A DNA stretch of 62,374 bases, from the IMG/VR virus record IMGVR_UViG_3300020171_000028, positions 1-62,374 of that record. One strand, 5' to 3'. A program made the position numbers and the translations under genes. The notes beneath the pieces are model-generated. The model did not search any database. It was not told the origin of the DNA and saw only the letters and a list, made by a program, of their open reading frames with translations. The DNA comes from a virus (taxonomy: Duplodnaviria; Caudoviricetes). This document shows, piece by piece, positions 6,398 to 48,963 of this stretch. How positions within the stretch are numbered: position 1 is the stretch's first letter; each line of letters starts with the position of its first letter.

Positions 6398-6951
6398 CGA
6401 ATTTTGTAAAACACTCCTAATTCGTAGTAATTTTGAAATGGATTGAAAGCGGCTTTGTAAGCCGTTTTTTTATTGTTTAAATATAAGATACCAAAACTAA
6501 AAGAAAGTTCGTTAAAACGGCTTATTTGCCCTCCTAGATATATATGTCCGGTAGTAGGAGAAGCAATAGTTATAGTTTTAGTAATGTAAGTAGGAAAATA
6601 ATGTATGGAAGGTTGTCGATATATTATCTTGTTCTCAGAAATAGAATCTTGCAAAGCTACAAATACATGTTCATTGTTTATTAACGTGTCGTGGTAAAAA
6701 TACTTAGCAAAATAATCAATCAAGATTGCTCCTGTATCAATTTTTTGAGTTTTCCATTTCGTGCTTCCTGTATCTCGGTAAAAAGGTACAGGCTTATATT
6801 TTACTACCGGATATGGAATAGAATCTCCTTTGATAGTATCATATCTAATTTCTATATCCGGTTGAGTAGTACGGATTGTATAATCTCTAACAAATATCAA
6901 AGACCCAATCCATAATACTAATACCAATACGGTTATTATTTTTGTTTTCAT
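6394..6951 (-). CDS. Lysis-module membrane protein (spanin-like candidate)
   Basis: Likely start MKTKII overlaps the amidase stop; N-terminal TM; follows endolysin. Confidence 0.6.
   Translation of the reverse strand: MKTKIITVLVLVLWIGSLIFVRDYTIRTTQPDIEIRYDTIKGDSIPYPVVKYKPVPFYRDTGSTKWKTQKIDTGAILIDYFAKYFYHDTLINNEHVFVALQDSISENKIIYRQPSIHYFPTYITKTITIASPTTGHIYLGGQISRFNELSFSFGILYLNNKKTAYKAAFNPFQNYYELGVFYKIR
6446..6471 (+). terminator. Intrinsic terminator where the two arms converge
   Basis: aaagcggctt-tgt-aagccgtttttttt. Confidence 0.6.
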
Positions 6952-7520
6952 GGGAACATCTTTTGTAAGGCATTTATATGGATTTCCGCAATTGTTTTTC
7001 TTCCTTCCTCTGACATAATGAAACGGCAATCTTTCTCAGTATCCATGAAAAGATTTTCTGTTAGTACCGCTGGGCAAATAGTGTTTTTCAAAATATAGAA
7101 ATCACTTTCTTTGTCAAAGTCCCCATCCACTATATCTTTCCTAATCGGAAATAAATCTTTCAATTTTTTGATAGCTTCTATATACAGTAAAGTAGCAATA
7201 GCATCACTTTTTGTTTCTCCGATAGAAGTAAAAGCCTCCCAGCCGGTACCCCTTCCTGCATTTGCATGAATAGAAATTAATATAGCTTTTTCTTTTTTTG
7301 CAATCGTATTTACTCGTTTAACTCGTTCCACTAAGGAAATATCATACAATTCAGGAACAAGAAATACTGAATCTATTCCTTTTGCAGCCAATCCGAAATG
7401 TACTCGAGACACGATATCCCTATTGAATTCAAATTCAAATAATTGAGTTCCGTCCCTCCATACCGGACTTCTTTTACCTGCAGTATTGTTTCCGTGCCCA
7501 TTATCAAGTAATATCTTCAT
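6948..7520 (-). CDS. Endolysin, N-acetylmuramoyl-L-alanine amidase (Amidase_3)
   Basis: LLDNGHG, E, ISIHANA, PAVLTENLFMD. Confidence 0.93.
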   Translation of the reverse strand: MKILLDNGHGNNTAGKRSPVWRDGTQLFEFEFNRDIVSRVHFGLAAKGIDSVFLVPELYDISLVERVKRVNTIAKKEKAILISIHANAGRGTGWEAFTSIGETKSDAIATLLYIEAIKKLKDLFPIRKDIVDGDFDKESDFYILKNTICPAVLTENLFMDTEKDCRFIMSEEGRKTIAEIHINALQKMFP

Positions 7521-35974: not shown

Positions 35975-36004
35975 CGGTGAAAACAATTTAAAAACCTTAC
36001 AACA

Positions 36005-36430
36005 ATGGAATATTATCAAATCTCAAGCAAAACGCTCCTCCCGGTTATTACTAGGGAGAAGAACAATTCCGGAGCAAACTTCACTATCAAAAGCAAAGTT
36101 ACCGGAAAAGAATACACTTTCCAAATCAACCGTTCTTTATTCAAGGGGAACTGGTATACTTTTGTTAAAGTAGAAATAAACTACTTAGATTTCCTTTACT
36201 TAGGAATGTACAAAAATGGAAAAGTTATATTGAAAGGACAAGAAGTGGAATCTCCTTCCGCCAAAGCCATTGCCTATATCTTACGTAAAGTAGAGAATCA
36301 GCAATTTGATTTGTTGGATTCCCAAATAGAACTACTCCATACAGGACATTGTTTAGTTTGCGGAAGAGAATTAACCGATTCAGATAGCATTAAAGCAGGT
36401 ATGGGTCCTGTTTGTAGAGGGGAGGAGTAA
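36005..36430 (+). CDS. DUF6011-like zinc-binding protein
   Basis: CLVCGRELTDSDSIKAGMGPVC. Confidence 0.75.
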   Translation: MEYYQISSKTLLPVITREKNNSGANFTIKSKVTGKEYTFQINRSLFKGNWYTFVKVEINYLDFLYLGMYKNGKVILKGQEVESPSAKAIAYILRKVENQQFDLLDSQIELLHTGHCLVCGRELTDSDSIKAGMGPVCRGEE

Positions 36431-36431
36431 G

Positions 36432-38114
36432 ATGATTTTACGATACGCAAATATTATCACACAAAAAGACGGGAAGCGGATTATCAAGGTCCAATTCCCT
36501 TACTCTTTTGAAGACCTAGCATTCATTAAAACTTTCTCTAACCGTAAATGGCTAGGGGAAGAGAAGCGTTGGTTGATTCCTATTTCTTTAGAAAACACTC
36601 TTGCTTTACTAAGCAAGCAATTCCAAATAGGCCCACAGTTGTCTGAATATCTCAAAATATCTAAACAAAGAAGGGAGGAAGCTGAGTCTGTTCCTATGCC
36701 TACTTTTAAAGAAGGGTTGAGTTTACGACCATACCAAGTGGAGGGGATTAGGTTTATCGAAAAAAGCAATGGGAGAGCTTTGATTGCAGATGAAATGGGT
36801 TTAGGAAAAACCATAGAAGCTATTGGCTGGTGTTGCTTACATCCTGAATTAAAGAAAGTTCTTGTATGCGTTCCTTCCTCGTTGAAAATTAAATGGAGTA
36901 GGGAATGTTTGAAGTGGATGGATAGGCCGTCAGTACAAATCTTACAAGGCCAAACTCCTTTTGAAGTAACCGGGGATGTGGTTATCATCAATCACGACAT
37001 ACTTTCTTATTGGCAATCGGCCTTACGGAAACTAGCATTTGATGTTCTTATAGTAGACGAAATACACCATTTCAAAAATCCTACCGCCCAAAGAACCAAA
37101 GCCCTAAATAAAGTAGCAAAGGGCATACAGCATATAATAGGCATCAGTGGAACTCCTATACAAAATCGACCTGTGGAGATATACAATGTCGGCAAACTAA
37201 TTAACTCAACTGCCTTACCTAATTACATAGAGTTTACTACTAAATTCTGCAATAGGTACCACAATGGATTTGGATGGGATGTAAGTGGTAGTTCTAATAT
37301 TCCTGAACTATTTCAATTGCTTTCCAATACTTTTATGATTCGTAGGTTGAAGAAAGATGTTACAAAAGAGTTGCCGGATAAACAATTCACTTTTGTTCCT
37401 TTTGAAATTGATAACAGAAAGGAATATCAACAAGCTGAGGATGATTTTTTGACTTATATTGGAAACAAGATAGATAAAGAGACAGAAAACACCTTGTCTG
37501 CCTATGAAAGAGCACGTTTAAAGCTCGATAAAATAAAAAAGGTATCTAATGCCCAGACCTTAGTAAAAGTCGGAGAATTAAAGCAATTGGCTGTTAAAGG
37601 GAAAATGGTGGGTGTTATTGAATGGTTGGAGGATTTTCTAAACAGCGGAGAAAAATTGATTGTTTTTGTTAGTCATATTTTTGTTAGTGATATGCTTAGA
37701 AAAGCATTTCCAGATGCTATAAAAATAGATGGCTCTATAACCGGACAAAAAAGACAAGATGTTGTAGATGCTTTCCAAAACGACCCAAAGGTAAAACTTC
37801 TGATAGGAAATCACAAAGCAGCCGGGGAAGGTTTAGATTTAACTGCGGCTTCCAATGTAGCTATTTTAGAATTCCCTTGGACTCCCGGTGCCGTTGACCA
37901 GGATATTGATAGAGTACATAGAATCGGACAAAAAGCCGACAAGGTAAATGTTTACTACCTTGTCGGAGTAGATACAATAGAAGAGCAGTTAGCTAAATTA
38001 ATAGACAAGAAAAGAAAAATTGTTCAAGGAACATTAGACGGTACAGCCGTACCTCAAGATTCTTTATTAAATGAATTGTTGAATACTTATAAAAATCAAA
38101 GCAATGAAATTTAG
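36432..38114 (+). CDS. SNF2-family (HARP/SMARCAL1-like) helicase
   Basis: LRPYQ, ADEMGLGKT, DEIH, SGTP, GEGLDL, DRVHRIGQ. Confidence 0.92.
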   Translation: MILRYANIITQKDGKRIIKVQFPYSFEDLAFIKTFSNRKWLGEEKRWLIPISLENTLALLSKQFQIGPQLSEYLKISKQRREEAESVPMPTFKEGLSLRPYQVEGIRFIEKSNGRALIADEMGLGKTIEAIGWCCLHPELKKVLVCVPSSLKIKWSRECLKWMDRPSVQILQGQTPFEVTGDVVIINHDILSYWQSALRKLAFDVLIVDEIHHFKNPTAQRTKALNKVAKGIQHIIGISGTPIQNRPVEIYNVGKLINSTALPNYIEFTTKFCNRYHNGFGWDVSGSSNIPELFQLLSNTFMIRRLKKDVTKELPDKQFTFVPFEIDNRKEYQQAEDDFLTYIGNKIDKETENTLSAYERARLKLDKIKKVSNAQTLVKVGELKQLAVKGKMVGVIEWLEDFLNSGEKLIVFVSHIFVSDMLRKAFPDAIKIDGSITGQKRQDVVDAFQNDPKVKLLIGNHKAAGEGLDLTAASNVAILEFPWTPGAVDQDIDRVHRIGQKADKVNVYYLVGVDTIEEQLAKLIDKKRKIVQGTLDGTAVPQDSLLNELLNTYKNQSNEI

Positions 38115-38322
38115 ACCAAGAAAAACTCCATTGAAAGAAATTGACGGAAACAGAGTAGGCCACACTAAAAACATCCACGACAAAGCTTTAGAATTAAAAG
38201 CAAAGCACGATGCTTATATGAAAGGCAAAAAGACCATTTTAGTAAAACATCCCACTGCCTTACGCTGTTGGATTGAAAAAATTGTACCTACCAAAACCTT
38301 ACAAAAAAATGAAAAGGACTAA
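38104..38322 (+). CDS. Hypothetical protein
   Basis: ORF in operon. Confidence 0.55.
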   Translation: MKFRPRKTPLKEIDGNRVGHTKNIHDKALELKAKHDAYMKGKKTILVKHPTALRCWIEKIVPTKTLQKNEKD

Positions 38323-38782
38323 TTATAGACATATCAAACATAACATCGGGCTTATCAAAAAAATAGCCACTTCCTTCCATGTCACTACTAGAATAGAATT
38401 AGATGATTTAATTTCAGAAGGATATTTGACTTATTTAGAAACTATAGAAAATTGGAATCCTAGTAGAGGTAAAATATCTACCTACATGTGGTATTGTTTA
38501 CATTCTAATTTAACTAACTATTGCGTAAAAGAAAAAAAATGCGTTCCTACTATTCCTTTAGAAGACATGGATTTCATATCTAAAACTTCTTCTCCTTTCT
38601 TTGAAAGATTAAATGAAGAGGCTTACGTTATTGCAAAAATAATTTTGAACTCTCCGGAAGAATTCATTTCTTTTTCAAAGAAAGCGGTACAAGAAAAATT
38701 AAAAAAAATCTTGTATAATAAAGGATGGACGGAAGAAAGAATCAATTCTGGGTTCGTTTGTTTACAATCTGTATTTAGTTAG
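38309..38782 (+). CDS. Sigma-70 region 2-like phage transcription factor
   Basis: DDLISEGYLTYLETIENWNPSRGKISTYMWYCL. Confidence 0.75.
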   Translation: MKRTNYRHIKHNIGLIKKIATSFHVTTRIELDDLISEGYLTYLETIENWNPSRGKISTYMWYCLHSNLTNYCVKEKKCVPTIPLEDMDFISKTSSPFFERLNEEAYVIAKIILNSPEEFISFSKKAVQEKLKKILYNKGWTEERINSGFVCLQSVFS

Positions 38783-38785
38783 GAT

Positions 38786-38938
38786 ATGAAAAAGATATTA
38801 AGTATAGAAAAAACAATTTGTATGGCTCCTCCTGAAAATTTCACGGATTGGATGGAATATATTAGAAAAGAAATGAAAAGTGTATATAAAGTAAAACGAA
38901 ATATAAATGGACGTCGTATCTTTGTATCAAGACTTTAG
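38786..38938 (+). CDS. Small hypothetical protein (50 aa, not in ORF track)
   Basis: MKKILSIEKTICMAPPENFTDWMEYIRKEM…. Confidence 0.45.
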   Translation: MKKILSIEKTICMAPPENFTDWMEYIRKEMKSVYKVKRNINGRRIFVSRL

Positions 38939-39812
38939 TATTCCTTACAAAACAGAAGGACATAAACACTGTCGGGAAGGGTGGGTAAATACTCAATGCC
39001 CCTTCTGTACAGGAAATTATGGATGGCATCTTAGTTATAACATTCAGGATAACTACTACGCCTGTTGGAGGTGTGGAGGTAAGTCTACTGTTATGGTAGT
39101 TTCTAAGCTTTTGAAAATTACTATTCCTTCCGCTTACTCTATTATCAAGAAATACGGCATGGTTTCCTATATGACCAAACCGACCAATACAAAAATAAAG
39201 CTTAGAAAGAAATCTTTCCGGTTGCCTTCCAACACAGATTCTTTATCTCAAATACATAAGAATTATTTAGAGGAGAGAGGGTTTGAAGTTGAAAAATTAG
39301 AAAAAGAATGGAATCTGTTAGGAACCGGTGTTTTCAGTAAATTAGAAGACATCTCCTACAAAAATAGAATCATCATTCCTTTTGAATGGAATGGAGAAAT
39401 GGTTAGTTTCGATTCAAGAGACATCACCAACAAAGCAACTAATAAGTATATGGCTTGCCCTAAAGATAGAGAAATTATAGAACATAAAACTATACTATAC
39501 GGCAACCAAAAGAAATGGAGTGATGTGGGTATATGTGTAGAAGGACCTACGGATGTTTGGAGGTTGGGTCCTTCTGCTTTTGCTCTCTCCGGAATAAAGT
39601 ATACTAGAAAACAAGTCAGAGAAATTAGAAAAGCATTTAAACGAGTGATTATCTTATTTGATGATGACCCTCAAGCAATCATTCAATCACATAAACTTAT
39701 GGTGGATTTACAATTAACTGGGGTGGAAGCCTCCGAAATAAATATCAAAGGAGACCCTGGAAGTATGTCTCAAGAAGAAGCAAATTACTTAGTAAAACAA
39801 ATAATTAGATAA
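38907..39812 (+). CDS. DNA primase (Zn finger + TOPRIM)
   Basis: CPFC…H…CWRCG, RIIIP, VEGPTD, FDDD, DPG. Confidence 0.88.
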   Translation: MDVVSLYQDFSIPYKTEGHKHCREGWVNTQCPFCTGNYGWHLSYNIQDNYYACWRCGGKSTVMVVSKLLKITIPSAYSIIKKYGMVSYMTKPTNTKIKLRKKSFRLPSNTDSLSQIHKNYLEERGFEVEKLEKEWNLLGTGVFSKLEDISYKNRIIIPFEWNGEMVSFDSRDITNKATNKYMACPKDREIIEHKTILYGNQKKWSDVGICVEGPTDVWRLGPSAFALSGIKYTRKQVREIRKAFKRVIILFDDDPQAIIQSHKLMVDLQLTGVEASEINIKGDPGSMSQEEANYLVKQIIR

Positions 39813-39815
39813 GCT

Positions 39816-40613
39816 ATGGCTGAAGGGAAAAAATCTTTCTTACTTTATACAGATTTACTTTACACAGTAGAACAACTTCCAGATGATATGGCAGGGAAAC
39901 TTTTTAAACATATTTTAGAATACGTTAATGACAAGAATCCCGAAACTGATGATTTAGTACTTAAAGTATCTTTCGAACCTATTAAACAACAATTGAAAAG
40001 GGATTTGAAAAAATTTGAAAACATCTGTGAGCAAAGAAGTGATTCAGGGACATTAGGAAATCTTAAACGGTGGAATGAGGATTTGTTTACTCAAGTAACG
40101 AAAAAACAAATATCACTCAAAGAAGCCTTAGAAATCGCAAACAATCGCAAAAATCGCAAACGCGATAAAATTATCGCAAAAATCGCTGATAATGATAATG
40201 ATAATGATAATGATATAATAAAAAAAAATAAACAAAAAAAAGTGATTGGGATATCTTTAGAGGATAAGAATAAAGAATATTTTCCATTAGCTAAACAACT
40301 ATCCAAAATTGTAAAAGAAAATAAAAACATATCTATCCAGTTACATGTAGTCAAGAATTGGAGCAATGATATTCGATTACTAACAGAAACTTCCAACATA
40401 GATATTCCTAGGATAGAAAAGGTCTTAGATTGGTATTCCAAAAATATAGGGAAAGAATACATCCCAATCATTCTATCTGGTAATGCCTTACGGACAAAAT
40501 TCTTAGCTTTGGAAAGTGCGATGGAAAGGAATGAAAAGAAAACAACTCCAGTGTCTCCTGTAAGATTTAAAAGTAGAACCCAAAGTTATAGAGACCCAGA
40601 TGAAATAATTTAA
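39816..40613 (+). CDS. Replication initiator-like protein with N-terminal DUF6291
   Basis: KKSFLLYTD…EQLPDDMAGKLFKHILEY; internal DNDNDND linker and iterons. Confidence 0.75.
   Translation: MAEGKKSFLLYTDLLYTVEQLPDDMAGKLFKHILEYVNDKNPETDDLVLKVSFEPIKQQLKRDLKKFENICEQRSDSGTLGNLKRWNEDLFTQVTKKQISLKEALEIANNRKNRKRDKIIAKIADNDNDNDNDIIKKNKQKKVIGISLEDKNKEYFPLAKQLSKIVKENKNISIQLHVVKNWSNDIRLLTETSNIDIPRIEKVLDWYSKNIGKEYIPIILSGNALRTKFLALESAMERNEKKTTPVSPVRFKSRTQSYRDPDEII
40132..40215 (+). repeat. Iteron-like ATCGC(AAA) repeats plus (TGATAA)n; probable replication origin
   Basis: aatcgcaaacaatcgcaaaaatcgcaaacgcgataaaattatcgcaaaaatcgctgataatgataatgataatgataatgata, followed by an A-rich tract. Confidence 0.7.
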
Positions 40614-40630
40614 ATTAAAAAATACGAATA

Positions 40631-41179
40631 ATGAAAACAAATTACAGAAAAATCGAGTTTGGAGCTGGTGATAGTATTGAAAGAGCAATGAATGATTTAG
40701 CACGTTTTAAAGAACGTGGCGAATTGGTTTATGGTGAGTTTAACGAGCAAAAATTATACTCAGACATTGACGACATTGATTCAGCTTATCAGAAAATTAC
40801 AGGCAAAACAAAGGCTGAATTTGACGAAGCAAGGCAAAAAGAACATGAAGAATATGAAGCTGAAAAGAAAAGGCACGAACAAGCTATTCCCGAATTAACA
40901 AAACAATGGATCGAAAAAGGGAACTTAATACTTGATGAAAAACATCACGAATTATGGGCTAAAATAGTTCCTGTTAGGCTTAAAGATTTATACAAAGGCT
41001 TTGAATTAGGGGCTTGCCTTGACATAGTGAGAGAGCTTAATGCAGGGTGTGTGTTTGAAAAAGTGAAAACTACAATTGAAGGACAAGGGCACTCTGGAAT
41101 GTCTTTCGCTTTAGTTTGCTCAATGGTAAAATCGTTCTGTGATAGAGGTGCTGAATTTGTAAATTACGCACGTTCTTAG
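40631..41179 (+). CDS. Hypothetical protein (distal cassette ORF 0, no upstream site visible)
   Basis: Ends tctTAG 11 nt before the AAC of site 1, like the other cassettes. Confidence 0.8.
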   Translation: MKTNYRKIEFGAGDSIERAMNDLARFKERGELVYGEFNEQKLYSDIDDIDSAYQKITGKTKAEFDEARQKEHEEYEAEKKRHEQAIPELTKQWIEKGNLILDEKHHELWAKIVPVRLKDLYKGFELGACLDIVRELNAGCVFEKVKTTIEGQGHSGMSFALVCSMVKSFCDRGAEFVNYARS

Positions 41180-41189
41180 TATGAACGCT

Positions 41190-41313
41190 AACGGACGGCA
41201 ATATGAAAAGTGCTGGATTACGAAGCACGGAATTGTCAAACTGCTGCGAACTTTGAAACGAGAACAAATATTTAATAACAGCACGAAACCCAGCATGTTT
41301 TATATTGCGTGTT
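41190..41313. repeat. attC-like site 1 (124 bp)
   Basis: AACG…gcaatatgaaaagtgctgg / ccagcatgttttatattgc…TGTT. Confidence 0.85.
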
Positions 41314-41340
41314 GTGCGTAGTGCTTTAATAATCAAAACA

Positions 41341-41751
41341 ATGACAAAAGAAGAAAAATTATCATTTTATTTGCCTTACAATATTAAAGGGCAATACAGA
41401 TTAGGTGATGTTGTTGAAAATGCACCTAACCCTGATGAAATTAGAGAAAAAACACTAACCACAGAAAATGCAGATTTTTTCTTTAAATTTTGTAAACCGA
41501 TATTAAGACCGATTGAAGATGCAATGACATTGAAAATTGATTTTGATGGAGAAGAAGATTTTTTTCACAATAATTTTTTTGGCTTTACAAATTTTAAAGC
41601 ATATTGGAAGGAATACGAAAGTTATGGAATGGCATATTGGCACAATAGAGCACCTTTTGTTGTTACTAAAAGATTACTTGAATATCATTTTGATGTTTTT
41701 GATATGATTAGATATGGATTGGCAACTTCAATGCACGATGCTGTCTCTTAG
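41341..41751 (+). CDS. Cassette 1 hypothetical protein
   Basis: Flanked by gttgtgcgtagtgct (41311) and agcattacgcacaac (41750). Confidence 0.8.
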   Translation: MTKEEKLSFYLPYNIKGQYRLGDVVENAPNPDEIREKTLTTENADFFFKFCKPILRPIEDAMTLKIDFDGEEDFFHNNFFGFTNFKAYWKEYESYGMAYWHNRAPFVVTKRLLEYHFDVFDMIRYGLATSMHDAVS

Positions 41752-41761
41752 CATTACGCAC

Positions 41762-41882
41762 AACGTCCGCAGGTATGTTGTCGTTGCGTGAATTTAGTAT
41801 AAACTTAAAAATAGAACAAATGAAAAATTTAGTAAGAAACTTATTTAGAGGTAGGAAGCAGCAATGCAATATATCTGATGTT
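41762..41882. repeat. attC-like site 2 (121 bp)
   Basis: caggtatgttgtcgttgc / gcaatgcaatatatctg with bulged T. Confidence 0.85.
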
Positions 41883-42035
41883 AGCGGTTCGTTGACACCT
41901 TTCGGAGAATCAATAAAACTGTTAAGAGATTTAGCTGACTTACAAAATGGCGCACCACTTGAACAGCATAGACAAGAGTGGGAAGAAACAATGGAACAGG
42001 TTTATGACTTCCTTAATAGGTGGGAAAGTCAATGA
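41820..42035 (+). CDS. Cassette 2 hypothetical protein (starts inside site 2)
   Basis: MKNLVRNLFRGRKQQCNISDVSGS…; IR gttagcggttcgttgac / gtcaatgaccgctaac. Confidence 0.7.
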   Translation: MKNLVRNLFRGRKQQCNISDVSGSLTPFGESIKLLRDLADLQNGAPLEQHRQEWEETMEQVYDFLNRWESQ

Positions 42036-42040
42036 CCGCT

Positions 42041-42129
42041 AACGGTGGCGATTGGCGAAGTAAAAGCCCTGCACTACCGTTTATGTTTAGCACTACACTT
42101 AATGGCTTTTATTTTGCCAATTGCGTGTT
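42041..42129. repeat. attC-like site 3 (89 bp)
   Basis: gcgattggcgaagtaaaagcc / ggcttttattttgccaattgc. Confidence 0.88.
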
Positions 42130-42178
42130 AGCGGATGCCCTTTTTCGAATTATTAATTAACAATTTAAAATAACAAAA

Positions 42179-42646
42179 ATGATACAAAAATTTAAAAAGA
42201 AACCTGTTGAGATTGAAGCAATACAATACACAGGTAAAAATGATTTTGAAATTGGTAAATGGTCAAATGATTTAGTTTACCCAAGCCCCGTTTTAGAGCC
42301 AAGTGAAAACAACCCAAGCGGTAGTTATTTGCAGATTAAAACACTTGAAGGCGTAATGACTGCAATAGTTGGCGATTGGATTATAAAAGGTGTTAAAGGC
42401 GAGTTTTACCCTTGCAAAAACGATATATTCTTAATGACTTATGATGTTGTAATTCCAAAAGATGTATTGGATGCTCAAAAATTCATACAAGAATGTGGTC
42501 GAGATATGGGATTTATGGGTTCACCTGAATATGACAGACAAAAGAAAATTGTTGATGCTTATTTTGAGCCTATTAAACAGAAAGAAAAAGAAGATTTAGA
42601 AATGGCTGAATACCTAAAACTCAAATCGAAGTACGAGGGTTCTTAG
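42179..42646 (+). CDS. Cassette 3: common phage protein of KKPVEIEA…GDWIIKGVKGEFYPCK family
   Basis: Motif; IR gttagcggatgccct / agggtttccgctaac. Confidence 0.82.
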   Translation: MIQKFKKKPVEIEAIQYTGKNDFEIGKWSNDLVYPSPVLEPSENNPSGSYLQIKTLEGVMTAIVGDWIIKGVKGEFYPCKNDIFLMTYDVVIPKDVLDAQKFIQECGRDMGFMGSPEYDRQKKIVDAYFEPIKQKEKEDLEMAEYLKLKSKYEGS

Positions 42647-42656
42647 GGTTTCCGCT

Positions 42657-42779
42657 AACGTTAAAATGTATGGTGTCGTGGCTGCCATAAACAAAGCCAC
42701 ATAGTTTAAAAACTTAATAATTTTAAATATGAAAAACGAACTTTCAAAAAACGAGCAGCCATGCACTATACATAGTGTT
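42657..42779. repeat. attC-like site 4 (123 bp)
   Basis: atgtatggtgtcgtggctgc / gcagccatgcactatacat with bulged T. Confidence 0.88.
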
Positions 42780-42947
42780 ATAGCCCGTTTATTAGTTTTA
42801 TTCTTTGCATTGCTAATGTTTACAATGTTTAGAACAGTATTGGACACTGGATGGGCTATTTATTGGGATGCTTTATGTGCAATTGGATGGGCTGGAAACT
42901 TATTGTGGATAAAGCCATTGTCGAAGTCTTTTTTTAATGGGCTATAA
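42729..42947 (+). CDS. Cassette 4 small membrane protein (starts inside site 4)
   Basis: Two TM; IR gttatagcccg / tgggctataac; stop TAA is within TAAC. Confidence 0.72.
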   Translation: MKNELSKNEQPCTIHSVIARLLVLFFALLMFTMFRTVLDTGWAIYWDALCAIGWAGNLLWIKPLSKSFFNGL

Positions 42948-43069
42948 CGTTCAAGTATTGCCGAAGGTGGGGCGTAAAAGTGCTACCGCTTTACCTAAGC
43001 ACAAAAGTTTAATAGTAGCACTAATGTTGAATTTGGGATGGTCTGCCCCACTTTTGGCAATACATTGTT
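42946..43069. repeat. attC-like site 5 (124 bp)
   Basis: gtattgccgaaggtggggc / gccccacttttggcaatac. Confidence 0.88.
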
Positions 43070-43091
43070 AGCAGCCGTTTTTTATCACGAT

Positions 43092-43478
43092 ATGGAAAAT
43101 TTAAAAGAATACATTAAAAACTGGATTGCTATTGATGGACAAAAACCTTGTAATGAGGATTTGTTTGTCAATGAGTTTATTGATTTGATTACAAAAATTG
43201 ATGATGAAAGAGATATTTCATTTGATGGCGAAGGCTCTTATTTTGGCAAACAAATAACGCTTCATTTGAATAGTGGCGTTTGGATTGGTGACCCGTTAAT
43301 TCATTTTGAAATTGCTTATAGCCAAAATCAAATTAGGGTTTACACAGCAAATCATCACGGGTTTTGGTATCCTGAATATTTATCAATGTCAAATAAACAT
43401 CCAAGATTTGAAGAAGTAAAAAAGCCACTATTTAAACTGCTTTACAAGGTTTTTGGTCTGCCCGAAAATGGCTGCTAA
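43092..43478 (+). CDS. Cassette 5 hypothetical protein
   Basis: IR gttagcagccgtttt / aaaatggctgctaac. Confidence 0.78.
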   Translation: MENLKEYIKNWIAIDGQKPCNEDLFVNEFIDLITKIDDERDISFDGEGSYFGKQITLHLNSGVWIGDPLIHFEIAYSQNQIRVYTANHHGFWYPEYLSMSNKHPRFEEVKKPLFKLLYKVFGLPENGC

Positions 43479-43597
43479 CGGTGGCAATAAGAAACGAAAG
43501 GGATTTGAAACCGCTTCTTTATCTACCGTTACAAGCCTTGCAAATAGCTACCACGCTCGAATTACAGATAATACCCTTTTGTTTTTTATTGCGTGTT
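43477..43597. repeat. attC-like site 6 (121 bp)
   Basis: gcaataagaaacgaaaggg / cccttttgttttttattgc. Confidence 0.88.
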
Positions 43598-43622
43598 ATA
43601 AAACGTTAATATTTAAATAATT

Positions 43623-43901
43623 ATGATAAAACATGAACAAATTACAGAAGTAAAAACAATATCAAAAAGGTATTGTGATGATTGCGGAAAAGAAACACCA
43701 TATAGGCGAACTTGTAACTGCTGCGGAAAAGATATGTGTAATGATTGTGTAGGACATGAAGAAAATGATGGTGGTGATTATTCAGATTACTATTGCTTAA
43801 AATGTTGGCACTTAGGAGAACCGTATCGAGATAAAATAAATGAGTTAGAAGTTCAGATAGCAGAACTAAGTGGCGAATGGATGTCGAAGTGTCGTTCTTA
43901 A
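43623..43901 (+). CDS. Cassette 6 Cys-rich zinc-finger protein
   Basis: Four CxxC pairs; IR gttataaaacgtta / taatgttttataac. Confidence 0.78.
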   Translation: MIKHEQITEVKTISKRYCDDCGKETPYRRTCNCCGKDMCNDCVGHEENDGGDYSDYYCLKCWHLGEPYRDKINELEVQIAELSGEWMSKCRS

Positions 43902-43909
43902 TGTTTTAT

Positions 43910-44033
43910 AACGTACTGCAGCCTTACGCAGTGGGGGCTTTTAACCACTGCACTAACTTAAAAGCACAAAATTATGAGTAACGAAAAATTGTCCAACGAA
44001 GCACAGAACCCCCCATTGAGTAAGGGTGTTGTT
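43910..44033. repeat. attC-like site 7 (124 bp)
   Basis: gcagccttacgcagtggggg / cccccattgagtaagggtgt. Confidence 0.82.
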
Positions 44034-44180
44034 ATGCCCCGTTTATTTGCTATTACAGCACAAGAAGGGTGGAATGAAATGTTTTGGGATAAAGAAAAAG
44101 CCCAACACAAAATTGATACACAATACAAAAAAGATTTTCCGAATGATGAATTTTGGGTTGAAGAAGTTAATGTCTCTTAA
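43974..44180 (+). CDS. Cassette 7 hypothetical protein (starts inside site 7)
   Basis: MSNEKLSNEAQNPPLSKGVVMPR…; terminal IRs do not match. Confidence 0.7.
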   Translation: MSNEKLSNEAQNPPLSKGVVMPRLFAITAQEGWNEMFWDKEKAQHKIDTQYKKDFPNDEFWVEEVNVS

Positions 44181-44189
44181 ATGCACCCT

Positions 44190-44315
44190 AACGGTCAGGC
44201 GGTTGGCGTTCGTTGCCGACTTTGGAACACGAAATTGTAAATTTAAAAATATAGTAAATATGAAATACGAAAGTTTGATACCAGAAAGACTCGGCAATGA
44301 CGCTAACCGCTTGTT
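44190..44315. repeat. attC-like site 8 (126 bp)
   Basis: ggcggttggcgttcgttgccga / tcggcaatgacgctaaccgct with bulged T. Confidence 0.88.
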
Positions 44316-44478
44316 ATGTGCAGGGCTTTGTCTGAATTGTAAACATCAGAGTTATAAAAGCGATAAGAACTTTGAAAAGACAGGTATTTGCATAGTGAAA
44401 TTTTGGAAAGACAAGAGATGTAAATTATCACCGAATAAGCCAGTTTTGAAATGTGCGGACTTTGAGCCTTGCACATAA
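44260..44478 (+). CDS. Cassette 8 Cys-rich protein (starts inside site 8)
   Basis: MKYESLIPERLGNDANRLLCAGLCLNC…; IR gttatgtgcagggct / agccttgcacataac. Confidence 0.68.
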   Translation: MKYESLIPERLGNDANRLLCAGLCLNCKHQSYKSDKNFEKTGICIVKFWKDKRCKLSPNKPVLKCADFEPCT

Positions 44479-44563
44479 CGGCTGCAAACATGAGCAGGCG
44501 GGCAATGCTCAATAAACCCGCACATACGCAACTGTGTCAGCCCGCTTGCTTATGTTTGTTGTT
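44477..44563. repeat. attC-like site 9 (87 bp)
   Basis: gcaaacatgagcaggcgggc / gcccgcttgcttatgtttgt. Confidence 0.88.
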
Positions 44564-44589
44564 AAAGGCTGGCGTTAATACTTTGTAAA

Positions 44590-44829
44590 ATGATACACGC
44601 AAGAGCAGATTATGACAGAATCCAAGACCCAAAAGGGAAAATTGGAGAAGATGAACCCGTTTTTTTGCTGAGAGCCAAAGACAGTTTAGCTCCTGGAATT
44701 TTGATGAAGTGGGCAACTGAGTTAATTAACAGAGGTGGCGACAAAAAAATGGCGAAAATGGTAACAGACCACGCTGTTAAAATGGTAGAGTGGCAAGAAA
44801 AAAACGGGTGCAAACTTCCAGATTTGTAG
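44590..44829 (+). CDS. Cassette 9 phage protein (DEPVFLLRAKD motif)
   Basis: IR gttaaaggctggcgt / acgcttgcctttaac. Confidence 0.78.
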   Translation: MIHARADYDRIQDPKGKIGEDEPVFLLRAKDSLAPGILMKWATELINRGGDKKMAKMVTDHAVKMVEWQEKNGCKLPDL

Positions 44830-44870
44830 AATGTTTCAGGTGAGCGTAGGGCTTTCTTACGCTTGCCTTT

Positions 44871-44991
44871 AACGGTTTGGCTAAGAATAGGCAGGGAAAA
44901 GAGCTTTACCCTTTCAGCCTACACGAATGATAAAACAAAACTCACAGGCTTAATTTGCAGACTTCGCCCCTGCTTATTATTAGCCTTTGTT
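44871..44991. repeat. attC-like site 10 (121 bp)
   Basis: ggctaagaataggcaggg / ccctgcttattattagcc. Confidence 0.86.
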
Positions 44992-45015
44992 ATAGGGCGT
45001 TTATAATTTAAGATT

Positions 45016-45441
45016 ATGAATACGGAATTTAAAAGAAAAGTATCTGAATTATTTCTAAAAAGGATTGACACGACTTATTTAAAAGGGTCTTGTGGAGAAC
45101 TTGGCGAATCTGTTAAAACTATTGATTATGATTATTTAAACGACCTTGTTAATGAAATAAGTGAGATTGTTAGCGATAATTTTGAACCAAAAAAATGTAT
45201 GCCTGATGGAATTAATTCTAAAGAGGAACACGATGAATATTTAAAAGCTATTGGGTATGAAAAATACGTGAAGGAATTAGAACACTTCAAAGATAGTCAC
45301 ATTGGACTTTATGTAATTGATAAAATGATTGATGACATCTTTACAGACACTCCATTAGAAAAAGACTGTAAAACAGTTGTCGAAGCTTATTTGGTTCAAC
45401 AATTTAAGCGATTAAAGTCTTTAATGTGGCGGATTTCTTAA
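45016..45441 (+). CDS. Cassette 10 hypothetical protein (integrase-proximal)
   Basis: IR gttatagggcgttt / aaatgccctataac. Confidence 0.78.
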   Translation: MNTEFKRKVSELFLKRIDTTYLKGSCGELGESVKTIDYDYLNDLVNEISEIVSDNFEPKKCMPDGINSKEEHDEYLKAIGYEKYVKELEHFKDSHIGLYVIDKMIDDIFTDTPLEKDCKTVVEAYLVQQFKRLKSLMWRIS

Positions 45442-45489
45442 ATGCCCTATAACATATAAATATATTTAACTTACTTTAACCTATTGATT
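45440..45489 (-). other. Putative attI-like primary insertion site
   Basis: Last AAC (45451-45453) is followed by A rather than G and by no stem-loop, and abuts the recombinase start. Confidence 0.55.
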
Positions 45490-46296
45490 ATGAATAAAGA
45501 TTATGGTAAAATTTTAAACATTTGCATTCAAAAGTTTAAATATTTAAATTACTCAGAAAACACTAGCAATATTTATGCTCATTATATCAAAGAATTCTTA
45601 GTAAAAACAGATAAATATATAGAGCATATAGTTTCAAATGACATGAATGCGTATTTAACAATGTATCGATTTTCCTCTATTTCTCAACAAAATCAAATTA
45701 TTAGTGCTTTAGCTTTTCTTTATAAGAAAGTATTAAATAAAAAATACGATAAAGTAGAATTCACAAGACCCATACGAGAAAAGAAACTTCCTAAAATAAT
45801 AGATAAAACGTACTTAATTAATAAAATATTGCGCATAAAGAATCTTAAACATAAAGCAATTTTAGCATTAGCATATTCTACAGGATTAAGAGTATCTGAA
45901 GTCATTAATTTAAAAATAAACGATATAGATTCAAAAAGAATGATAGTAAAAATAAATCAATCAAAAGGAAATAAAGATAGAATAGTACCATTAACAAACG
46001 ATTTGCTTAAAATACTTCGAGAATATTATTTAGAACATAAACCAAAAGAATTTTTATTTAATGGGCAGAAATCTTTAAAATATTCAGCAGGAAGTTGTAA
46101 TCAGTTAGTTAAGAGACATATAGGAAGCGAGTATCATTTTCATTTACTTAGACATTCTTGTTTCACTCATTTGACTGATCAAGGGGTTGATATTCGAGTT
46201 ATACAGAAACTAGCTGGGCATTCAAATCCTAATACGACTGCGATTTATGCTCAAGTAAGTACTAGTATTTTACATAGATTACCATTAGGAATTTAA
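45490..46296 (+). CDS. Tyrosine recombinase, integron-integrase-like N-terminal SAM domain, no IntI-specific insertion
   Basis: NYSENTSNIY; catalytic R (GLRVSE), K (KGNKDR), HxxR (HLLRH), H (LAGH), Y (TTAIY). Confidence 0.92.
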   Translation: MNKDYGKILNICIQKFKYLNYSENTSNIYAHYIKEFLVKTDKYIEHIVSNDMNAYLTMYRFSSISQQNQIISALAFLYKKVLNKKYDKVEFTRPIREKKLPKIIDKTYLINKILRIKNLKHKAILALAYSTGLRVSEVINLKINDIDSKRMIVKINQSKGNKDRIVPLTNDLLKILREYYLEHKPKEFLFNGQKSLKYSAGSCNQLVKRHIGSEYHFHLLRHSCFTHLTDQGVDIRVIQKLAGHSNPNTTAIYAQVSTSILHRLPLGI

Positions 46297-46300
46297 TTTT

Positions 46301-46310
46301 TTTGTATAAT
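46301..46310 (+). promoter_or_regulatory. Putative middle promoter TTTGTATAAT
   Basis: Repeated intergenic motif. Confidence 0.7.
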
Positions 46311-46326
46311 AAGAAAAAATAAAAAC

Positions 46327-46596
46327 ATGAAAAACAACAACAGAAAAATCACTCGAGGAAGACCTCGCCATTACCAAAGTTTCGATGATGGGACTACTTT
46401 CCTTCATATTACTGAAACAGAAACCCAAAGAATAACCCAGGAAGGTATGCGAAAAAGAATGGAATCTATGAAGCCTCTAAGAGAAGCTTCTAAAGCAACT
46501 AAAGATAAAAAAATACAAAAATTCAGAGGGACTTTAGTTTGGAATTCTTCCAAGGACGGGACCTTTTATGGAAATGTAAAAAGAGATTTGTTTTAA
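46327..46596 (+). CDS. Hypothetical protein
   Basis: ORF after promoter motif. Confidence 0.6.
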   Translation: MKNNNRKITRGRPRHYQSFDDGTTFLHITETETQRITQEGMRKRMESMKPLREASKATKDKKIQKFRGTLVWNSSKDGTFYGNVKRDLF

Positions 46597-46613
46597 CTTA
46601 AAAGAAAAAAGCG

Positions 46614-46916
46614 ATGGAATTTATTGTTATTATGTTAATCAGTTTAATCGGATTAATGATTGTCTATGTACAGTACTTAGAATTACGACAAAAACATTTT
46701 GTTAAAACAGTAAAAAGAGGAGACCCTTGTCTATTTTATTTGAATGGTAAGGTACGAGAAGGAATTGTTTTGATGTATGTGAAAGAAAACATTTACTCTC
46801 ATGTACAAGATAATTATGGAAATATCCATAGAGTATTTACTGAGGATATCACTCCTCCAAAATTATGGAAATGCGAAAAGAAGAAATCTGGAGGAAAAGG
46901 ATTCTCCCAAAACTAA
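46614..46916 (+). CDS. Membrane-anchored hypothetical protein
   Basis: N-terminal TM. Confidence 0.6.
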   Translation: MEFIVIMLISLIGLMIVYVQYLELRQKHFVKTVKRGDPCLFYLNGKVREGIVLMYVKENIYSHVQDNYGNIHRVFTEDITPPKLWKCEKKKSGGKGFSQN

Positions 46917-47425
46917 TAAAAAGATTTACTCCTCGAATACAACAAGACTTACTTAAAATTGAATGGCCTGCAAATTTACCAAATGAAATTTCCAATCTGT
47001 ATCTATACGGGGAAACAGAGGTTGGAAAAACTATTTATGCGGCATTTCTTTGCTTACATGCTAGTAAATTAAAGTATTTAACAGAAGATATTTCCGGAAA
47101 AGATTTTCTTTTTGTTTCTTTTCCGGAATTGTTTATGGAGATAAAAGAAACTTTTGAAGATAAAACAAAATCTGAAGTAACTGTTTTAAACAAATACCGA
47201 GAAGTGGATTTACTTGTATTAGATGATTTCGGGGTTAAGAATAGTAGCGATTGGTTTATAGAAGTGCTTTATGTTATTATCAATTATCGATATGAGCAAC
47301 AAAAAACCACCGTATTCACTAGCAATTATTCTTTACAAGAAATGGCTTCCTTGTTAGGGGATGATAGAATTTCCTCTAGGATTGAACGGATGTGTCGAAT
47401 TATGTTAAAGAAAACTTGGAAATGA
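46865..47425 (+). CDS. DnaC/IstB-like AAA+ helicase loader
   Basis: GETEVGKT, LLVLDDFG, IINYRY, TVFTSN, DRISSRI. Confidence 0.88.
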   Translation: MEMRKEEIWRKRILPKLIKRFTPRIQQDLLKIEWPANLPNEISNLYLYGETEVGKTIYAAFLCLHASKLKYLTEDISGKDFLFVSFPELFMEIKETFEDKTKSEVTVLNKYREVDLLVLDDFGVKNSSDWFIEVLYVIINYRYEQQKTTVFTSNYSLQEMASLLGDDRISSRIERMCRIMLKKTWK

Positions 47426-48963
47426 TAGAACGAAAAATACTTATTTCACTTATCACATCAACTGAATTTTGCAGGCAAATTAAGCCTCACTGGAATCCAC
47501 ATTACTTAGAAAGTACTATTGGAAAACATATAGCCGCTTGGTGCTGGGAGTATTACGATAAATACAAGGAAGCTCCTGGAAGGAATATTGAAGGAATATA
47601 CATCCAGAAAATAAAAGAAGGCCTTGCCGAGGATATAGCAGAAGAAATTGAGGAGGATATTTTACCGGATTTAAGTGAAGAATTTGTAGAAGGAGAATGG
47701 AACCTCCAATTTCAAATCGACCAAACTCTTCAATTCTTTCAAGAAAGACGACTTGTAATTTTAGCCAATCAAATAAAAGGGTTAGTAGAAGATAATAAGA
47801 TAGAAGATGCTGAAAATTTAGCTAAGGCTCATAGAACCGTTTTAAACGCCTCTTCTAATGATCTTGATATAAGTATCCGGAAAGAGGTTTATCGGCGCTT
47901 AAAACTAGCCTTTGACGCCTTACACGAGAATTTAATCTATTACCCAGGTGCGTTAGGCAGTTTTTGGAATGCCCAACTAGTAAGAGGTGGTTTTGTTGCT
48001 TTAATGGCAAGTGAGAAACGGGGCAAGACTTTCATGTTGATAGATATGGCGTTAAGAGCTGCCAAACAAGGAAGGAAAGTAGCCTTTTTTCAGGCCGGGG
48101 ATATGACAGAAGCGCAACAATTACGCCGTATTTGCATTTACTTAGCAAAGAAATCAGACCAAGAACGTTACTTAGGAGAAATGTATGAACCTGTAAAAGA
48201 TTGTATTTTTAATCAATTAGATACTTGCACATTGCCGGAAAGAGAATGTGATTATGGCGTATTTGAAGACAAAGCAGAAATTCAGATAAGAAAAGAAATT
48301 ACTAAGCAAGATTTAATAGAAGCGTTTGAAGATAATAAAGAATACAAACCTTGTTACAATTGCAAGAAATATTACGCAGATAAGTTAGGAGTCCCTTGGA
48401 TAAAGAAAGTAAATGTAGGAAACTCTCCTTTGGAATTAAATGAAGCAAAAAGACTAATTCATCGTTTCTTCATAAAACATTCCAGAGTATTTAAACTCAG
48501 TTCTCATGCCAACGGAACTTTATCTATCCGCAAAGTAGAAGAAATTTTAGAAGGATGGAAAGAAAAGGATGGATTTGTTCCGGATGTCATTGTTACTGAT
48601 TACGCTGATTTGTTTTCAGAAGAAACAAAAGAATTCCGACATAAACAAAATGAAATATGGAAAGGGCATAGAGCCCTAAGCCAAACGTACAATGCATTAG
48701 TTATTACAGCAACACAAGCGGATGCGGATAGTTATGAAAAACACACATTGTCTTTGAAAAATTTCTCTGAAGATAAAAGAAAGTACGGTCATGTTACTTC
48801 ATTCTATGCATTGAATCAGGATAAAGAAGGGAGAGAGAAGGCAATTGGGCTTCTGCGGATTAATGAAATACTAATCCGGGAAGGGGAAAATAATGCAATT
48901 GTTACAGTTTTGCAGAATTTAAAGAGAGGAAGACCTTTTTTAGGTAGTTTTTTAGGAAAGTAA
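47422..48963 (+). CDS. DnaB-like replicative helicase with Cys-rich insertion
   Basis: ASEKRGKT, VIVTDYADL, VITATQA, FSEDKRK. Confidence 0.82.
   Translation: MIERKILISLITSTEFCRQIKPHWNPHYLESTIGKHIAAWCWEYYDKYKEAPGRNIEGIYIQKIKEGLAEDIAEEIEEDILPDLSEEFVEGEWNLQFQIDQTLQFFQERRLVILANQIKGLVEDNKIEDAENLAKAHRTVLNASSNDLDISIRKEVYRRLKLAFDALHENLIYYPGALGSFWNAQLVRGGFVALMASEKRGKTFMLIDMALRAAKQGRKVAFFQAGDMTEAQQLRRICIYLAKKSDQERYLGEMYEPVKDCIFNQLDTCTLPERECDYGVFEDKAEIQIRKEITKQDLIEAFEDNKEYKPCYNCKKYYADKLGVPWIKKVNVGNSPLELNEAKRLIHRFFIKHSRVFKLSSHANGTLSIRKVEEILEGWKEKDGFVPDVIVTDYADLFSEETKEFRHKQNEIWKGHRALSQTYNALVITATQADADSYEKHTLSLKNFSEDKRKYGHVTSFYALNQDKEGREKAIGLLRINEILIREGENNAIVTVLQNLKRGRPFLGSFLGK

Follow-up and report, generated by a model that had tools for sequence, protein, structure and literature searches.

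Integrons have been regarded as a bacterial invention of one clade of integrases, in which an extra helix allows recombination on single-stranded DNA (ssDNA). Here we describe an array of ten hairpin-tagged gene cassettes, followed by a gene for a tyrosine recombinase, in a virus of the Caudoviricetes (Duplodnaviria) represented by the IMG/VR record IMGVR_UViG_3300020171_000028; the whole of this stretch, a 62,374-bp virus record with a CheckV completeness of ~90%, is referred to below as the window. We consider it likely that this array is a phage-borne, integron-like cassette platform, the substrate of which would be the plus strand folded as ssDNA. The closest described precedent is the two-site “CALIN” with methylases that Qi et al. 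2023 (PMC9892861) uncovered in the Polaribacter phage P12002L by means of integron search tools. They reported that IntI1 recombined one of the P12002L sites into attI1 from one strand, with no recombination from the other. The accessible text of that paper calls the directions of the sites divergent, views the integron parts as having been acquired by the phage, and contains no mention that we could find of a cognate phage recombinase, a reversed polarity or a wobble asymmetry. The minus strand of P12002L (L005, 29240-32300, read from 32300 to 29240) nevertheless presents the layout seen in the window, namely AACG…GTT hairpins whose cassettes, DNA methylases among them, have matching end boxes, and at the terminus a bare half-site (…GTGCCTAAC), beyond which the next gene lies on the other strand. 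No integrase is annotated in the 48,689-bp P12002L record, i.e., this is an array without its recombinase.

Other systems share individual elements with the window. As portrayed in the accessible part of a study on the CTX phage (PMC3442271), XerCD-mediated recombination acts on a one-strand phage hairpin and exchanges one strand pair; unlike in the window, however, it is a whole filamentous phage that is recombined at the host dif by host enzymes, with no array, no cassettes and no phage-encoded recombinase. The dif modules of Acinetobacter plasmids, in the corresponding part of PMC7399989, are small gene modules bounded by Xer-type sites and found in varied contexts, but they feature 28-bp duplex dif-like sites served by the host XerC/D, without long hairpins, a dedicated recombinase next to them or any ordering into an array at an insertion site. 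Escudero et al. 2020 (PMC7790495) attribute, in the text open to us, the single-strand recombination of IntI to the acquisition of the I2 helix. Finally, Bartlau et al. (PMC8776804) isolated phages that prove to be relevant here, Freya, Leef and Ingeline, and the accessible sections take their integrases as indicating a possible temperate life style and mention no arrays. A full-text literature search, with most subscription journals outside its coverage, recovered no description of such arrays together with their recombinase, the P12002L “CALIN” alone coming near.

The window array and integrons have the following in common: both are arrays of mostly single-open reading frame (ORF) cassettes with no evident promoter of their own; both have imperfect palindromes lying between …AAC and GTT…, with complementary end boxes in each cassette; and in both the recombinase gene has the insertion site directly beside it, the crossover falls in a conserved triplet and one strand appears to be marked for folding. 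The length range of attC sites takes in the 87-126 nt of the window sites, which also display the imperfect inverted repeats, the AAC and GTT bounds and the cassette-specific outer boxes that characterize attC. In contrast to integrons, the phage recombinase lacks the I2 helix and scores under the IntI and Xer model cut-offs; its gene is situated 3′ of the cassettes and co-oriented with them, instead of being divergent, with attC sites 3′ of the ORFs and a promoter for the cassettes on the attI side; in the phage, the attI end is operon-distal; the hairpin lies at the 5′ end of the cassette, with the ORFs on the recombined strand; the strand asymmetry stems from fixed G·T wobbles and extra bases of the 5′ arm; and the platform is lodged in a virulent-type replication operon. 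The element is thus an integron analogue and not a member of the integron family. A first-pass annotation, made from the sequence alone, had named it a reversed-ORF integron: its geometry and predicted crossover agree with our findings, and the folded plus strand does so as an interpretation, but the recombinase is not an IntI and “integron” holds only as an analogy.

The array (41190-45453; Table 1) consists of ten small plus-strand ORFs of 68-155 aa alternating with ten AACG…TGTT elements, the hairpins of which occupy 41190-44991. Eight of the sites are 121-126 nt in length and two are 87-89 nt. Each hairpin is built of an AAC:GTT pair, a G·T pair, an internal loop that is longer on its 5′ side, a stem of ~19 bp and a loop of 35-70 nt. 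All ten sites start with AACG and end with TGTT, and their flanking pair is accordingly G·T throughout, just as the first-pass annotation had stated of the AAC-G/T-GTT flank. Outside the hairpins, nine of the ten cassettes have complementary ends: the box that follows the GTT of their own site pairs, over 9-16 bp, with the box that precedes the next AAC (15 bp in both cassette 1 and cassette 10). When the entire window was scanned for AAC…GTT hairpins with a strand-neutral score, the eight best (at least 28.5) all fell in the array, with the best elsewhere reaching 28.0; the remaining two array sites scored 22 and 25.5. Automatic chaining of sites via their end boxes returned only three window sites and mis-picked the partners of short ones, and the sites were therefore delimited by scans from each AACG and curation by eye.

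On the side of the recombinase, the array terminates in a bare half-site (…CCCTATAAC) that lies 36 nt 5′ of the recombinase ATG and is not followed by a hairpin, whereas its opposite end is a full hairpin. By comparison with the relatives discussed below, this half-site is where the last cassette meets the insertion site; what follows it is a candidate attI-like constant stretch, ATATAAATATA…. Together with the variable-…AAC^constant junctions of the relatives (carets mark joints throughout), at which entire blocks of cassettes are present or absent, the half-site places an attI-type insertion site right beside the recombinase gene. At the distal end, the backbone box and the AAC of site 1 would, in the proposed model, be the left half of the original insertion site; no complementary GTT-box partner was found upstream of it. 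Three of the cassette ORFs (4, 5 and 8) use the TAA of the next TAAC as their stop codon, and four ORFs start within the loop of the preceding hairpin (sites 2, 4, 7 and 8) and read through its 3′ arm. The bare half-site, the distal full hairpin, these stop codons and the starts in loops all fit a mobile unit made up of a hairpin and the ORF downstream of it, with units being added beside the recombinase. Small ORFs can also be contained whole in hairpin loops, as at L004 4988-5212 and 5626-5858, and in L046 the hairpin of the site 8 type carries a 30-codon ORF stopping just past the hairpin, the window copy of which extends to 72 codons.

Comparisons among relatives demonstrate, at the level of genome sequences, the position of the crossover, the make-up of the unit, the constant site by the recombinase and the linkage of the arrays to this recombinase family. 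Our tblastn searches found recombinases with 34-39% identity in the Cellulophaga phage Ingeline and the Polaribacter phages Leef and Freya. Ten Freya isolates have genomes of 43,978 to 48,920 bp, and two of these, Freya_1 and Freya_10, show 100% identical flanks around a 4921-bp block directly upstream of the recombinase gene. In Freya_10 the left joint of the block reads …TTTACAAC^GGATATGG…, with a hairpin very like window site 4, and the right joint …TTGCTAAC^ACCCCTATAAC…; the single joint in Freya_1 reads …TTTACAAC^ACCCCTATAAC…, and Freya_6, which has different cassettes, ends in …ACTACCAAC^ACCCCTATAAC…. Because the two partners have only AAC in common, the exchange is site-specific within this triplet, which is the one 5′ of the hairpins on the gene-sense strand.

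The relatives from IMG/VR concur with this. At least 373 of them were recovered with a profile built on 18 members of the family, and the best 80 (51-64% recombinase identity; L012-L091) were analysed. Four groups of related loci have near-identical recombinases preceded by ~40-80 nt of equally conserved sequence and become unrelated right beyond a variable …(T)AAC; examples are the junctions …GGGGTAAC^, …GAGCATAAC^ and …GTACATAAC^, each continuing with TATCATATATCAAC…. Shared cassettes or attI-like boundaries were found in L037-L040, L043/L045, L065/L074 and L033/L057. For instance, L037 and L039 have nothing in common upstream of …ATAAC^G-hairpin, but from there on, over the ORF, the constant stretch and the recombinase, their identity is 100%, while a 118-nt cassette end that is 100% identical in L038 and L040 has a hairpin next to it in the former and the constant stretch in the latter. 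Among the homology blocks between arrays, 37 of the 74 internal left ends are located within -5..0 nt of the AAC of a detected site; the right ends are fuzzy and extend beyond the GTT. Window site 8 itself is 87% identical to a site of L046, with the homology beginning at the AAC. From the relatives' junctions and shared cassettes it follows that the unit is a hairpin plus its downstream ORF and that units join beside the recombinase. Two expectations of the first-pass annotation are hence borne out: that of a crossover on the AAC side, predicted as AA^C, to the resolution of the triplet by the Freya joints, the junctions of the other relatives and the 37/74 homology ends; and that of a site lying 5′ of its gene, with which it is seen to travel, by the L037/L039, L038/L040 and site 8/L046 pairs.

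Two further features of the relatives may be recorded here. In Freya_10 (L001 4085-4146), Leef (L007 8070-8136) and Ingeline (L006 7645-7700), the constant stretch opens with a second direct-repeat box reading A/GCCCCTATA(A/T)AC or ACCCACATAAC, which is like the last cassette end of the window; it could offer the enzyme another place to bind, or be the fossil of a cassette end. In L013, two 123-nt stretches (3828-3950 and 6830-6952) are 100% identical and end in …CACCTAAC; for these, homologous recombination is also conceivable.

The second line of evidence is the asymmetry of the two strands. For each site we aligned the 5′ arm to the reverse complement of the 3′ arm, giving both kinds of transition the same weight; MAFFT misaligned the arms of eight full sites, and an anchored stem alignment, without a covariance model, was used instead. 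The ten stems contain 28 5′G·3′T and five 5′T·3′G positions, i.e., 33 that pair on the plus strand, versus six A·C or C·A positions that pair on the minus strand (binomial p = 1.4e-5), and all six of the latter sit at ragged, loop-side ends of the alignment; 14 transversions are also present. This agrees with the first-pass claim that the deviations are mostly 5′G opposite 3′T, and the sequence examples that it quoted for sites 3 and 9 were found exactly as written. Sites 2, 4 and 8 share an extra T of the 5′ arm at an equivalent place (…G-T-CG… opposite …CA-C…), again as had been noticed. For the end repeats, the annotation needed correction in one respect: their wobbles do pair on the plus strand only, but position 11 of the end-repeat helix is a T·G wobble in 10/10 cassettes with T, and not G, on the 5′ partner.

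Folding both strands, the check that the first-pass annotation had proposed, showed them to be unequal. With DNA parameters the plus strand is more stable in nine of the ten sites, by 0.9-6.0 kcal/mol, the two strands being equal at site 10; its z-score is more negative in nine as well, with site 1 as the exception. The long hairpin is the DNA minimum-energy fold on the plus strand in 9/10 sites and on the minus strand in 6/10, with site 2 adopting it on neither. Individual values include -21.8 (plus) against -17.1 (minus) for site 3, with z-scores of -4.16 and -2.52, and -26.8 against -22.0 for site 5. RNA parameters favor the plus strand in seven sites and leave the strands about equal in three. 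The energy gap between the strands is thus consistent but modest.

The system is widespread, and its geometry recurs across the family. Counting hairpins with a score of at least 28 in the 80 viral loci, we found 324 in 325 kb upstream of the recombinase versus 86 in 486 kb downstream, and every one of the 44 loci with at least 3 kb of upstream sequence has two or more (36/44 have at least four). Of the upstream hairpins 218 have the form AACG…TGTT. The upstream sites display 933 plus-type versus 333 minus-type transitions (p = 4e-66), to be compared with a downstream background of 283 versus 243. Moreover, the wobbles are fixed in place: in a set of 240 distinct sites, numbered backward from the GTT, 5′G·3′T is found at position 15 in 193 and at position 10 in 88, positions 3-21 together amount to 458 plus-type versus 49 minus-type, and the remaining stem positions are mostly Watson-Crick despite the varying sequence. 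The 5′ arm is longer by 2-5 nt in 211/245 sites, and site lengths form two peaks, at 80-100 nt and 120-130 nt, each comprising 86 sites. ORFs of at least 50 aa in 43 arrays number 445 on the plus strand versus 102 on the minus strand. In 21 curated sites of L004, P12002L, Freya, Leef and Ingeline, a count that omits five low-scoring sites identified by eye (L004 ~2327, 3350, 4122 and 4548; P12002L ~17736), there are 62 plus-type versus 20 minus-type transitions. Among 15 relatives (40-62% identity) scanned on Bacteroidota genome contigs, 11 have at least one upstream hairpin and four have none; seven have at least three (L093, L094, L103, L106, L107, L111 and L112). Five control recombinases with 23-33% identity, from Melioribacteraceae, Lactobacillaceae and Faecalicatena, have 0 or 1 hairpin. 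As a separate observation, contigs end less than 700 nt upstream of the recombinase in 18/80 viral loci versus less than 700 nt downstream in 2/80; the assemblies seem to break at the arrays, as is expected of repeated or heterogeneous sites.

The recombinase is the only PF00589 (Phage_integrase) match in the whole record (2.8e-37), with an additional match to PF13495 (SAM_4; 1.3e-11). It scores under the cut-off of every curated Xer-family model tried, and likewise of the IntI models: the best of those tried, the XerA-type NF040815, gives 159 bits against a cut-off of 220, followed by the IntI model TIGR02249 (138 against 265), XerD (128 against 330), XerC (121 against 335) and PRK15417 (97 against 435). 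The “XerD” label borne by its relatives is an automatic source name. In the alignment to VchIntIA (2a3v), 36 residues of the query (182-217) stand opposite 84 residues of IntI (181-264), in the place of the IntI-specific insertion, and an AlphaFold (AF2) model of the recombinase (pLDDT, the predicted local distance difference test, 81.8) shows no helix in the stretch from residue 184 to residue 199. In the PDB, this model matches XerA (5hxy) and IntI (2a3v) best, about equally. Lacking the I2 helix insertion that defines the IntI clade, the recombinase is not an IntI.

Based on the above, we propose the following mechanism. The mobile unit would be roughly C-G-(hairpin)-T-GTT-box-ORF-box′-(T)AA, and the 268-aa Xer-like recombinase would exchange DNA within the AAC that ends each unit. 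Units would enter and leave at the A/T-rich site directly upstream of the recombinase gene, with exchange between hairpin sites occurring too. The substrate would most likely be ssDNA of the plus strand, the one in gene sense, after folding back on itself: that strand alone pairs at the fixed wobble positions, G·T or T·G, namely AAC-G/T-GTT, inner-stem positions 10-15 and outer-helix position 11, which in the complement become A·C mismatches. These wobbles, along with the asymmetric internal loop or the T bulge of the 5′ arm, would signal the strand, and hence the orientation, to the enzyme, such that cassettes would always enter with their ORF along the replication operon and pointing at the recombinase. 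Seen outward from the recombinase, the insertion site would come first and then the cassettes, and the plus strand would act as the “bottom” strand of an integron, albeit with the ORFs on it. A tyrosine recombinase cuts the strand that has its binding arm 5′ of the spacer. With the crossover located in the AAC preceding the hairpin, the cut therefore falls on the plus strand, folded or not. The fixed wobbles mark the plus strand as the folding strand, an argument that is independent of the crossover evidence and agrees with it, and both fit the model of the first-pass annotation. We infer that the recombinase is the catalyst, ssDNA the substrate and the wobbles the strand selector. We are inclined, if only by a little, toward the wider view that a large Xer-like clade of Bacteroidota phages has arrived at an independent integron, in which ssDNA hairpins are recombined without an I2 helix, the strand is coded by wobbles, the polarity is mirrored, new cassettes arrive at the 3′ end of a replication operon, and the cassettes constitute a shared pool of accessory genes, those for counter-defence included, that is swapped among virulent phages in co-infection.

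Several observations weigh against such a platform. Cassette turnover is seen only in relatives, whose recombinases are at most 64% identical to that of the window (34.5% for Freya), and it cannot be demonstrated in the window phage itself because no close relative was found: a megablast search with 36000-48000 of the window against 50,697 phage records gave no match, and an exact 28-nt pattern from the attI-like stretch had zero matches in IMG/VR. Logan contigs of four runs (with 66-100% of sampled words) likewise yielded no clean joint. P12002L has an array but no annotated integrase, implying that arrays can do without a recombinase gene next to them in cis. The plus strand is also the sense strand of the mRNA, and each wobble would occur in the transcript as a G·U pair just as well. 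The folding gap is modest (0-6 kcal/mol), the z-score of site 1 favors the minus strand, and the site 2 hairpin is not the DNA minimum-energy fold on either strand. Cassette 7 (43912-44191) is the sole cassette with non-matching end boxes, which pair over 4 bp only, even as the T·G at position 11 is kept; a fusion or an internal deletion may have given rise to it. The I2 helix that this recombinase lacks is the very feature held, in the accessible text of PMC7790495, to have enabled single-strand recombination by IntI.

A further departure concerns the symmetry with integrons. The extrahelical bases of attC lie on the arm opposite the crossover (the 3′ arm). In the phage sites the extra unpaired bases are on the arm carrying the crossover, a departure from a simple mirror image of attC. 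As for the Logan data, three candidate joints with sides of 22-30 nt and 90% likeness were rejected as probably deriving from other phages that share site sequences; the contigs of runs X2-X4 are short and break in or near window sites.

The alternative that survives best, though we hold it to be improbable, is that the recombination is real but takes place on double-stranded DNA, with the G and T of the arms reflecting the preferences of two non-identical half-sites, or a cruciform. An enzyme that is Xer/XerA-like and without the IntI insertion would suit it, given that Xer enzymes normally use duplex sites, as would the constant stretch by the recombinase, which has no hairpin and may be a duplex site (AAC^TAYTATATA…), and the modest gap in energy between the strands. 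A dif-type core is a duplex of ~28-30 bp with two arms around a 6-8 bp spacer; the cassette sites, hairpins of 87-126 nt, are not dif-like. Against the alternative, the arms of these sites are 35-250 nt apart, leaving no such spacer between half-sites, and by eye no dyad partner (GTTA…) is seen within 6-8 bp after the AAC in the ten sites. Nor would duplex recognition keep stems of ~19 bp paired while their sequences differ between sites, and in a cruciform, wobbles at fixed, mirrored positions would destabilize the second hairpin.

Slightly less probable again is that the G·U pairs exist chiefly for the polycistronic mRNA, be it for its processing, its stability or the control of translation, with the exchange at AAC being separate or secondary; an RNA role in addition to the DNA one, along the lines that the first-pass annotation had raised, is conceivable. 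The hairpins do lie on the sense strand between co-directional ORFs, four of their loops hold start codons, that of site 8, start codon included, is 87% conserved in L046, and RNA parameters make the plus strand far more stable at sites 2, 8 and 9. An Rfam search, on the other hand, returned no family at E <=1, terminator-like sites are not enriched (seven found versus 6.0 expected), and an RNA role leaves unexplained the AAC/GTT boxes, the complementarity of cassette ends, the bare half-site, the 44/44 linkage to one family of recombinases and the sharp breaks at AAC. The weakest alternative is an ordinary lysogeny integrase, with hairpins that are unconnected to it and act as intergenic repeats at which modules are exchanged by homologous or illegitimate recombination, as has been proposed for promoter-stem-loop repeats in T4-type phages, for although the accessible text of the isolate paper takes these genes as a possible temperate sign (PMC8776804), relatives are present in Flavobacterium and Tenacibaculum isolate genomes and the two identical 123-nt sites of L013 could recombine homologously, the gene is set inside the replication module and not by a repressor or the genome end, geometry and wobble positions are fixed across the family, and homologous exchange cannot join a hairpin site to a hairpin-less constant stretch with which it shares AAC only.

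If the integron-like platform is as we propose, the logic of the integron, with its hairpin-tagged cassettes, fixed insertion site and choice of strand, operates in phages with a smaller and different recombinase, a mirrored polarity and another strand mark, and would represent a second, independent solution to single-strand site-specific recombination. It would likewise explain the hypervariable region of isolated flavobacterial phages (the Freya genomes range from 44.0 to 48.9 kb), call for a reinterpretation of annotations that equate an integrase with a temperate phage and of phage “CALINs”, and open up a large, easily delimited catalogue of phage accessory genes, e.g., methyltransferases and ADP-ribosyltransferases, probably under selection by host defences. 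Because Freya, Leef and Ingeline are in culture together with their Polaribacter and Cellulophaga hosts, the platform is open to direct test.

Table 1. Features of the cassette array and its borders in the window (all coordinates are window positions)
Feature	Coordinates	Strand	Description	Cassette limits or basis
Backbone ORF	40631..41179	+	182 aa, last before the array; function unknown	ORF list
Distal end of array	41180..41192	+	Backbone box and AAC of site 1	Read from sequence
Site 1	41190..41313	+	124 nt; positions 10 and 15 (numbered backward from GTT) are G·T wobbles	
Cassette 1 ORF	41341..41751	+	136 aa; weak phrog_10841 match (function unknown)	Cassette 41192-41763
Site 2	41762..41882	+	121 nt; bulged T in 5′ arm; ORF start in loop	
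Cassette 2 ORF	41820..42035	+	71 aa; starts in site 2 loop; no family match	Cassette 41764-42042
Site 3	42041..42129	+	89 nt; short class	
Cassette 3 ORF	42179..42646	+	155 aa; widespread small phage protein, phrog_419 (E = 5.6e-32)	Cassette 42043-42658
Site 4	42657..42779	+	123 nt; bulged T; ORF start in loop; resembles first Freya_10 hairpin	
Cassette 4 ORF	42729..42947	+	72 aa; hydrophobic; TAA stop within next TAAC	Cassette 42659-42947
Site 5	42946..43069	+	124 nt	
Cassette 5 ORF	43092..43478	+	128 aa; stop within next TAAC	Cassette 42948-43478
Site 6	43477..43597	+	121 nt	
Cassette 6 ORF	43623..43901	+	92 aa; Cys-rich; weak zinc-ribbon hint	Cassette 43479-43911
Site 7	43910..44033	+	124 nt; ORF start in loop; three stem transversions	
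Cassette 7 ORF	43974..44180	+	68 aa; alternative in-frame ATG just after GTT	Cassette 43912-44191
Site 8	44190..44315	+	126 nt; bulged T; ORF start in loop	
Cassette 8 ORF	44260..44478	+	72 aa; Cys-rich; stop within next TAAC	Cassette 44192-44478
Site 9	44477..44563	+	87 nt; short class	
Cassette 9 ORF	44590..44829	+	79 aa	Cassette 44479-44872
Site 10	44871..44991	+	121 nt	
Cassette 10 ORF	45016..45441	+	141 aa; nearest the recombinase	Cassette 44873-45452
Terminal bare half-site	45444..45453	+	…CCCTATAAC; no hairpin following	Matches …(T)AAC^constant junctions of relatives
Candidate attI-like constant stretch	45453..45489	+	A/T-rich, ATATAAATATA…; extent uncertain	Analogy with AAC^TAYTATATA… of relatives
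Tyrosine recombinase	45490..46296	+	268 aa from ATG (270 aa from TTG at 45484)	PF00589, PF13495

The cargo of the arrays is best apprehended from the family as a whole. The ten ORFs of the window mostly belong to no family, the exceptions being the matches of cassettes 3 and 1 listed in Table 1; the cassette 3 protein has tblastn matches in 784 phage records, and a homologue is present in the array of L004. Among the 150 largest ORFs of 43 related arrays, a set that includes some backbone genes as the limits of the regions are loose, Pfam searches identified 10 DNA methylases and three ADP-ribosyltransferases of the ART-PolyVal family, as well as an RNA ligase, Thg1 and a 2′-5′ RNA ligase, with most ORFs matching nothing. 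The cargo of the relatives thereby includes orphan DNA methyltransferases, ADP-ribosyltransferases and enzymes for the repair of RNA. Methylases are seen as clear cassettes in L004 and P12002L. The cassettes would thus carry accessory genes that are probably deployed in counter-defence. The possibility that the hairpin loops supply promoters of their own to these genes was rejected: the Bacteroidetes -7 motif TAnnTTTG is not enriched in the window (91 found versus 84.6 expected), and the single plus-strand match within any site is located in a stem.

The array is embedded in the replication module, which runs, all on the plus strand, from a helicase through a sigma-factor-like gene, a primase, a DnaD-like gene and the 182-aa ORF (for which Pfam and PHROG searches gave no match) to the cassettes; 3′ of these, on the same strand, follow the recombinase, two small ORFs and then the DnaC-like and DnaB-like genes. 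The recombinase gene hence lies between replication genes, DnaD-like upstream and DnaC- and DnaB-like downstream, and the genes do run toward it, as the first-pass annotation had maintained, with cassettes and recombinase all on the plus strand inside this operon. The host phylum is most likely Bacteroidota, because relatives of the recombinase with at least 40% identity occur almost entirely in Bacteroidota assemblies (species genomes). The sigma-factor-like ORF just upstream of the primase (38273-38782, 169 aa) matches the phage sigma-factor family phrog_351 with E = 1.1e-11, and a phage-directed polymerase may accordingly read the operon that carries the array. In addition, a short run of GATAAT is present at 40170-40216, with AAATCGCAAA repeats nearby, inside the DnaD-like ORF (39816-40613).

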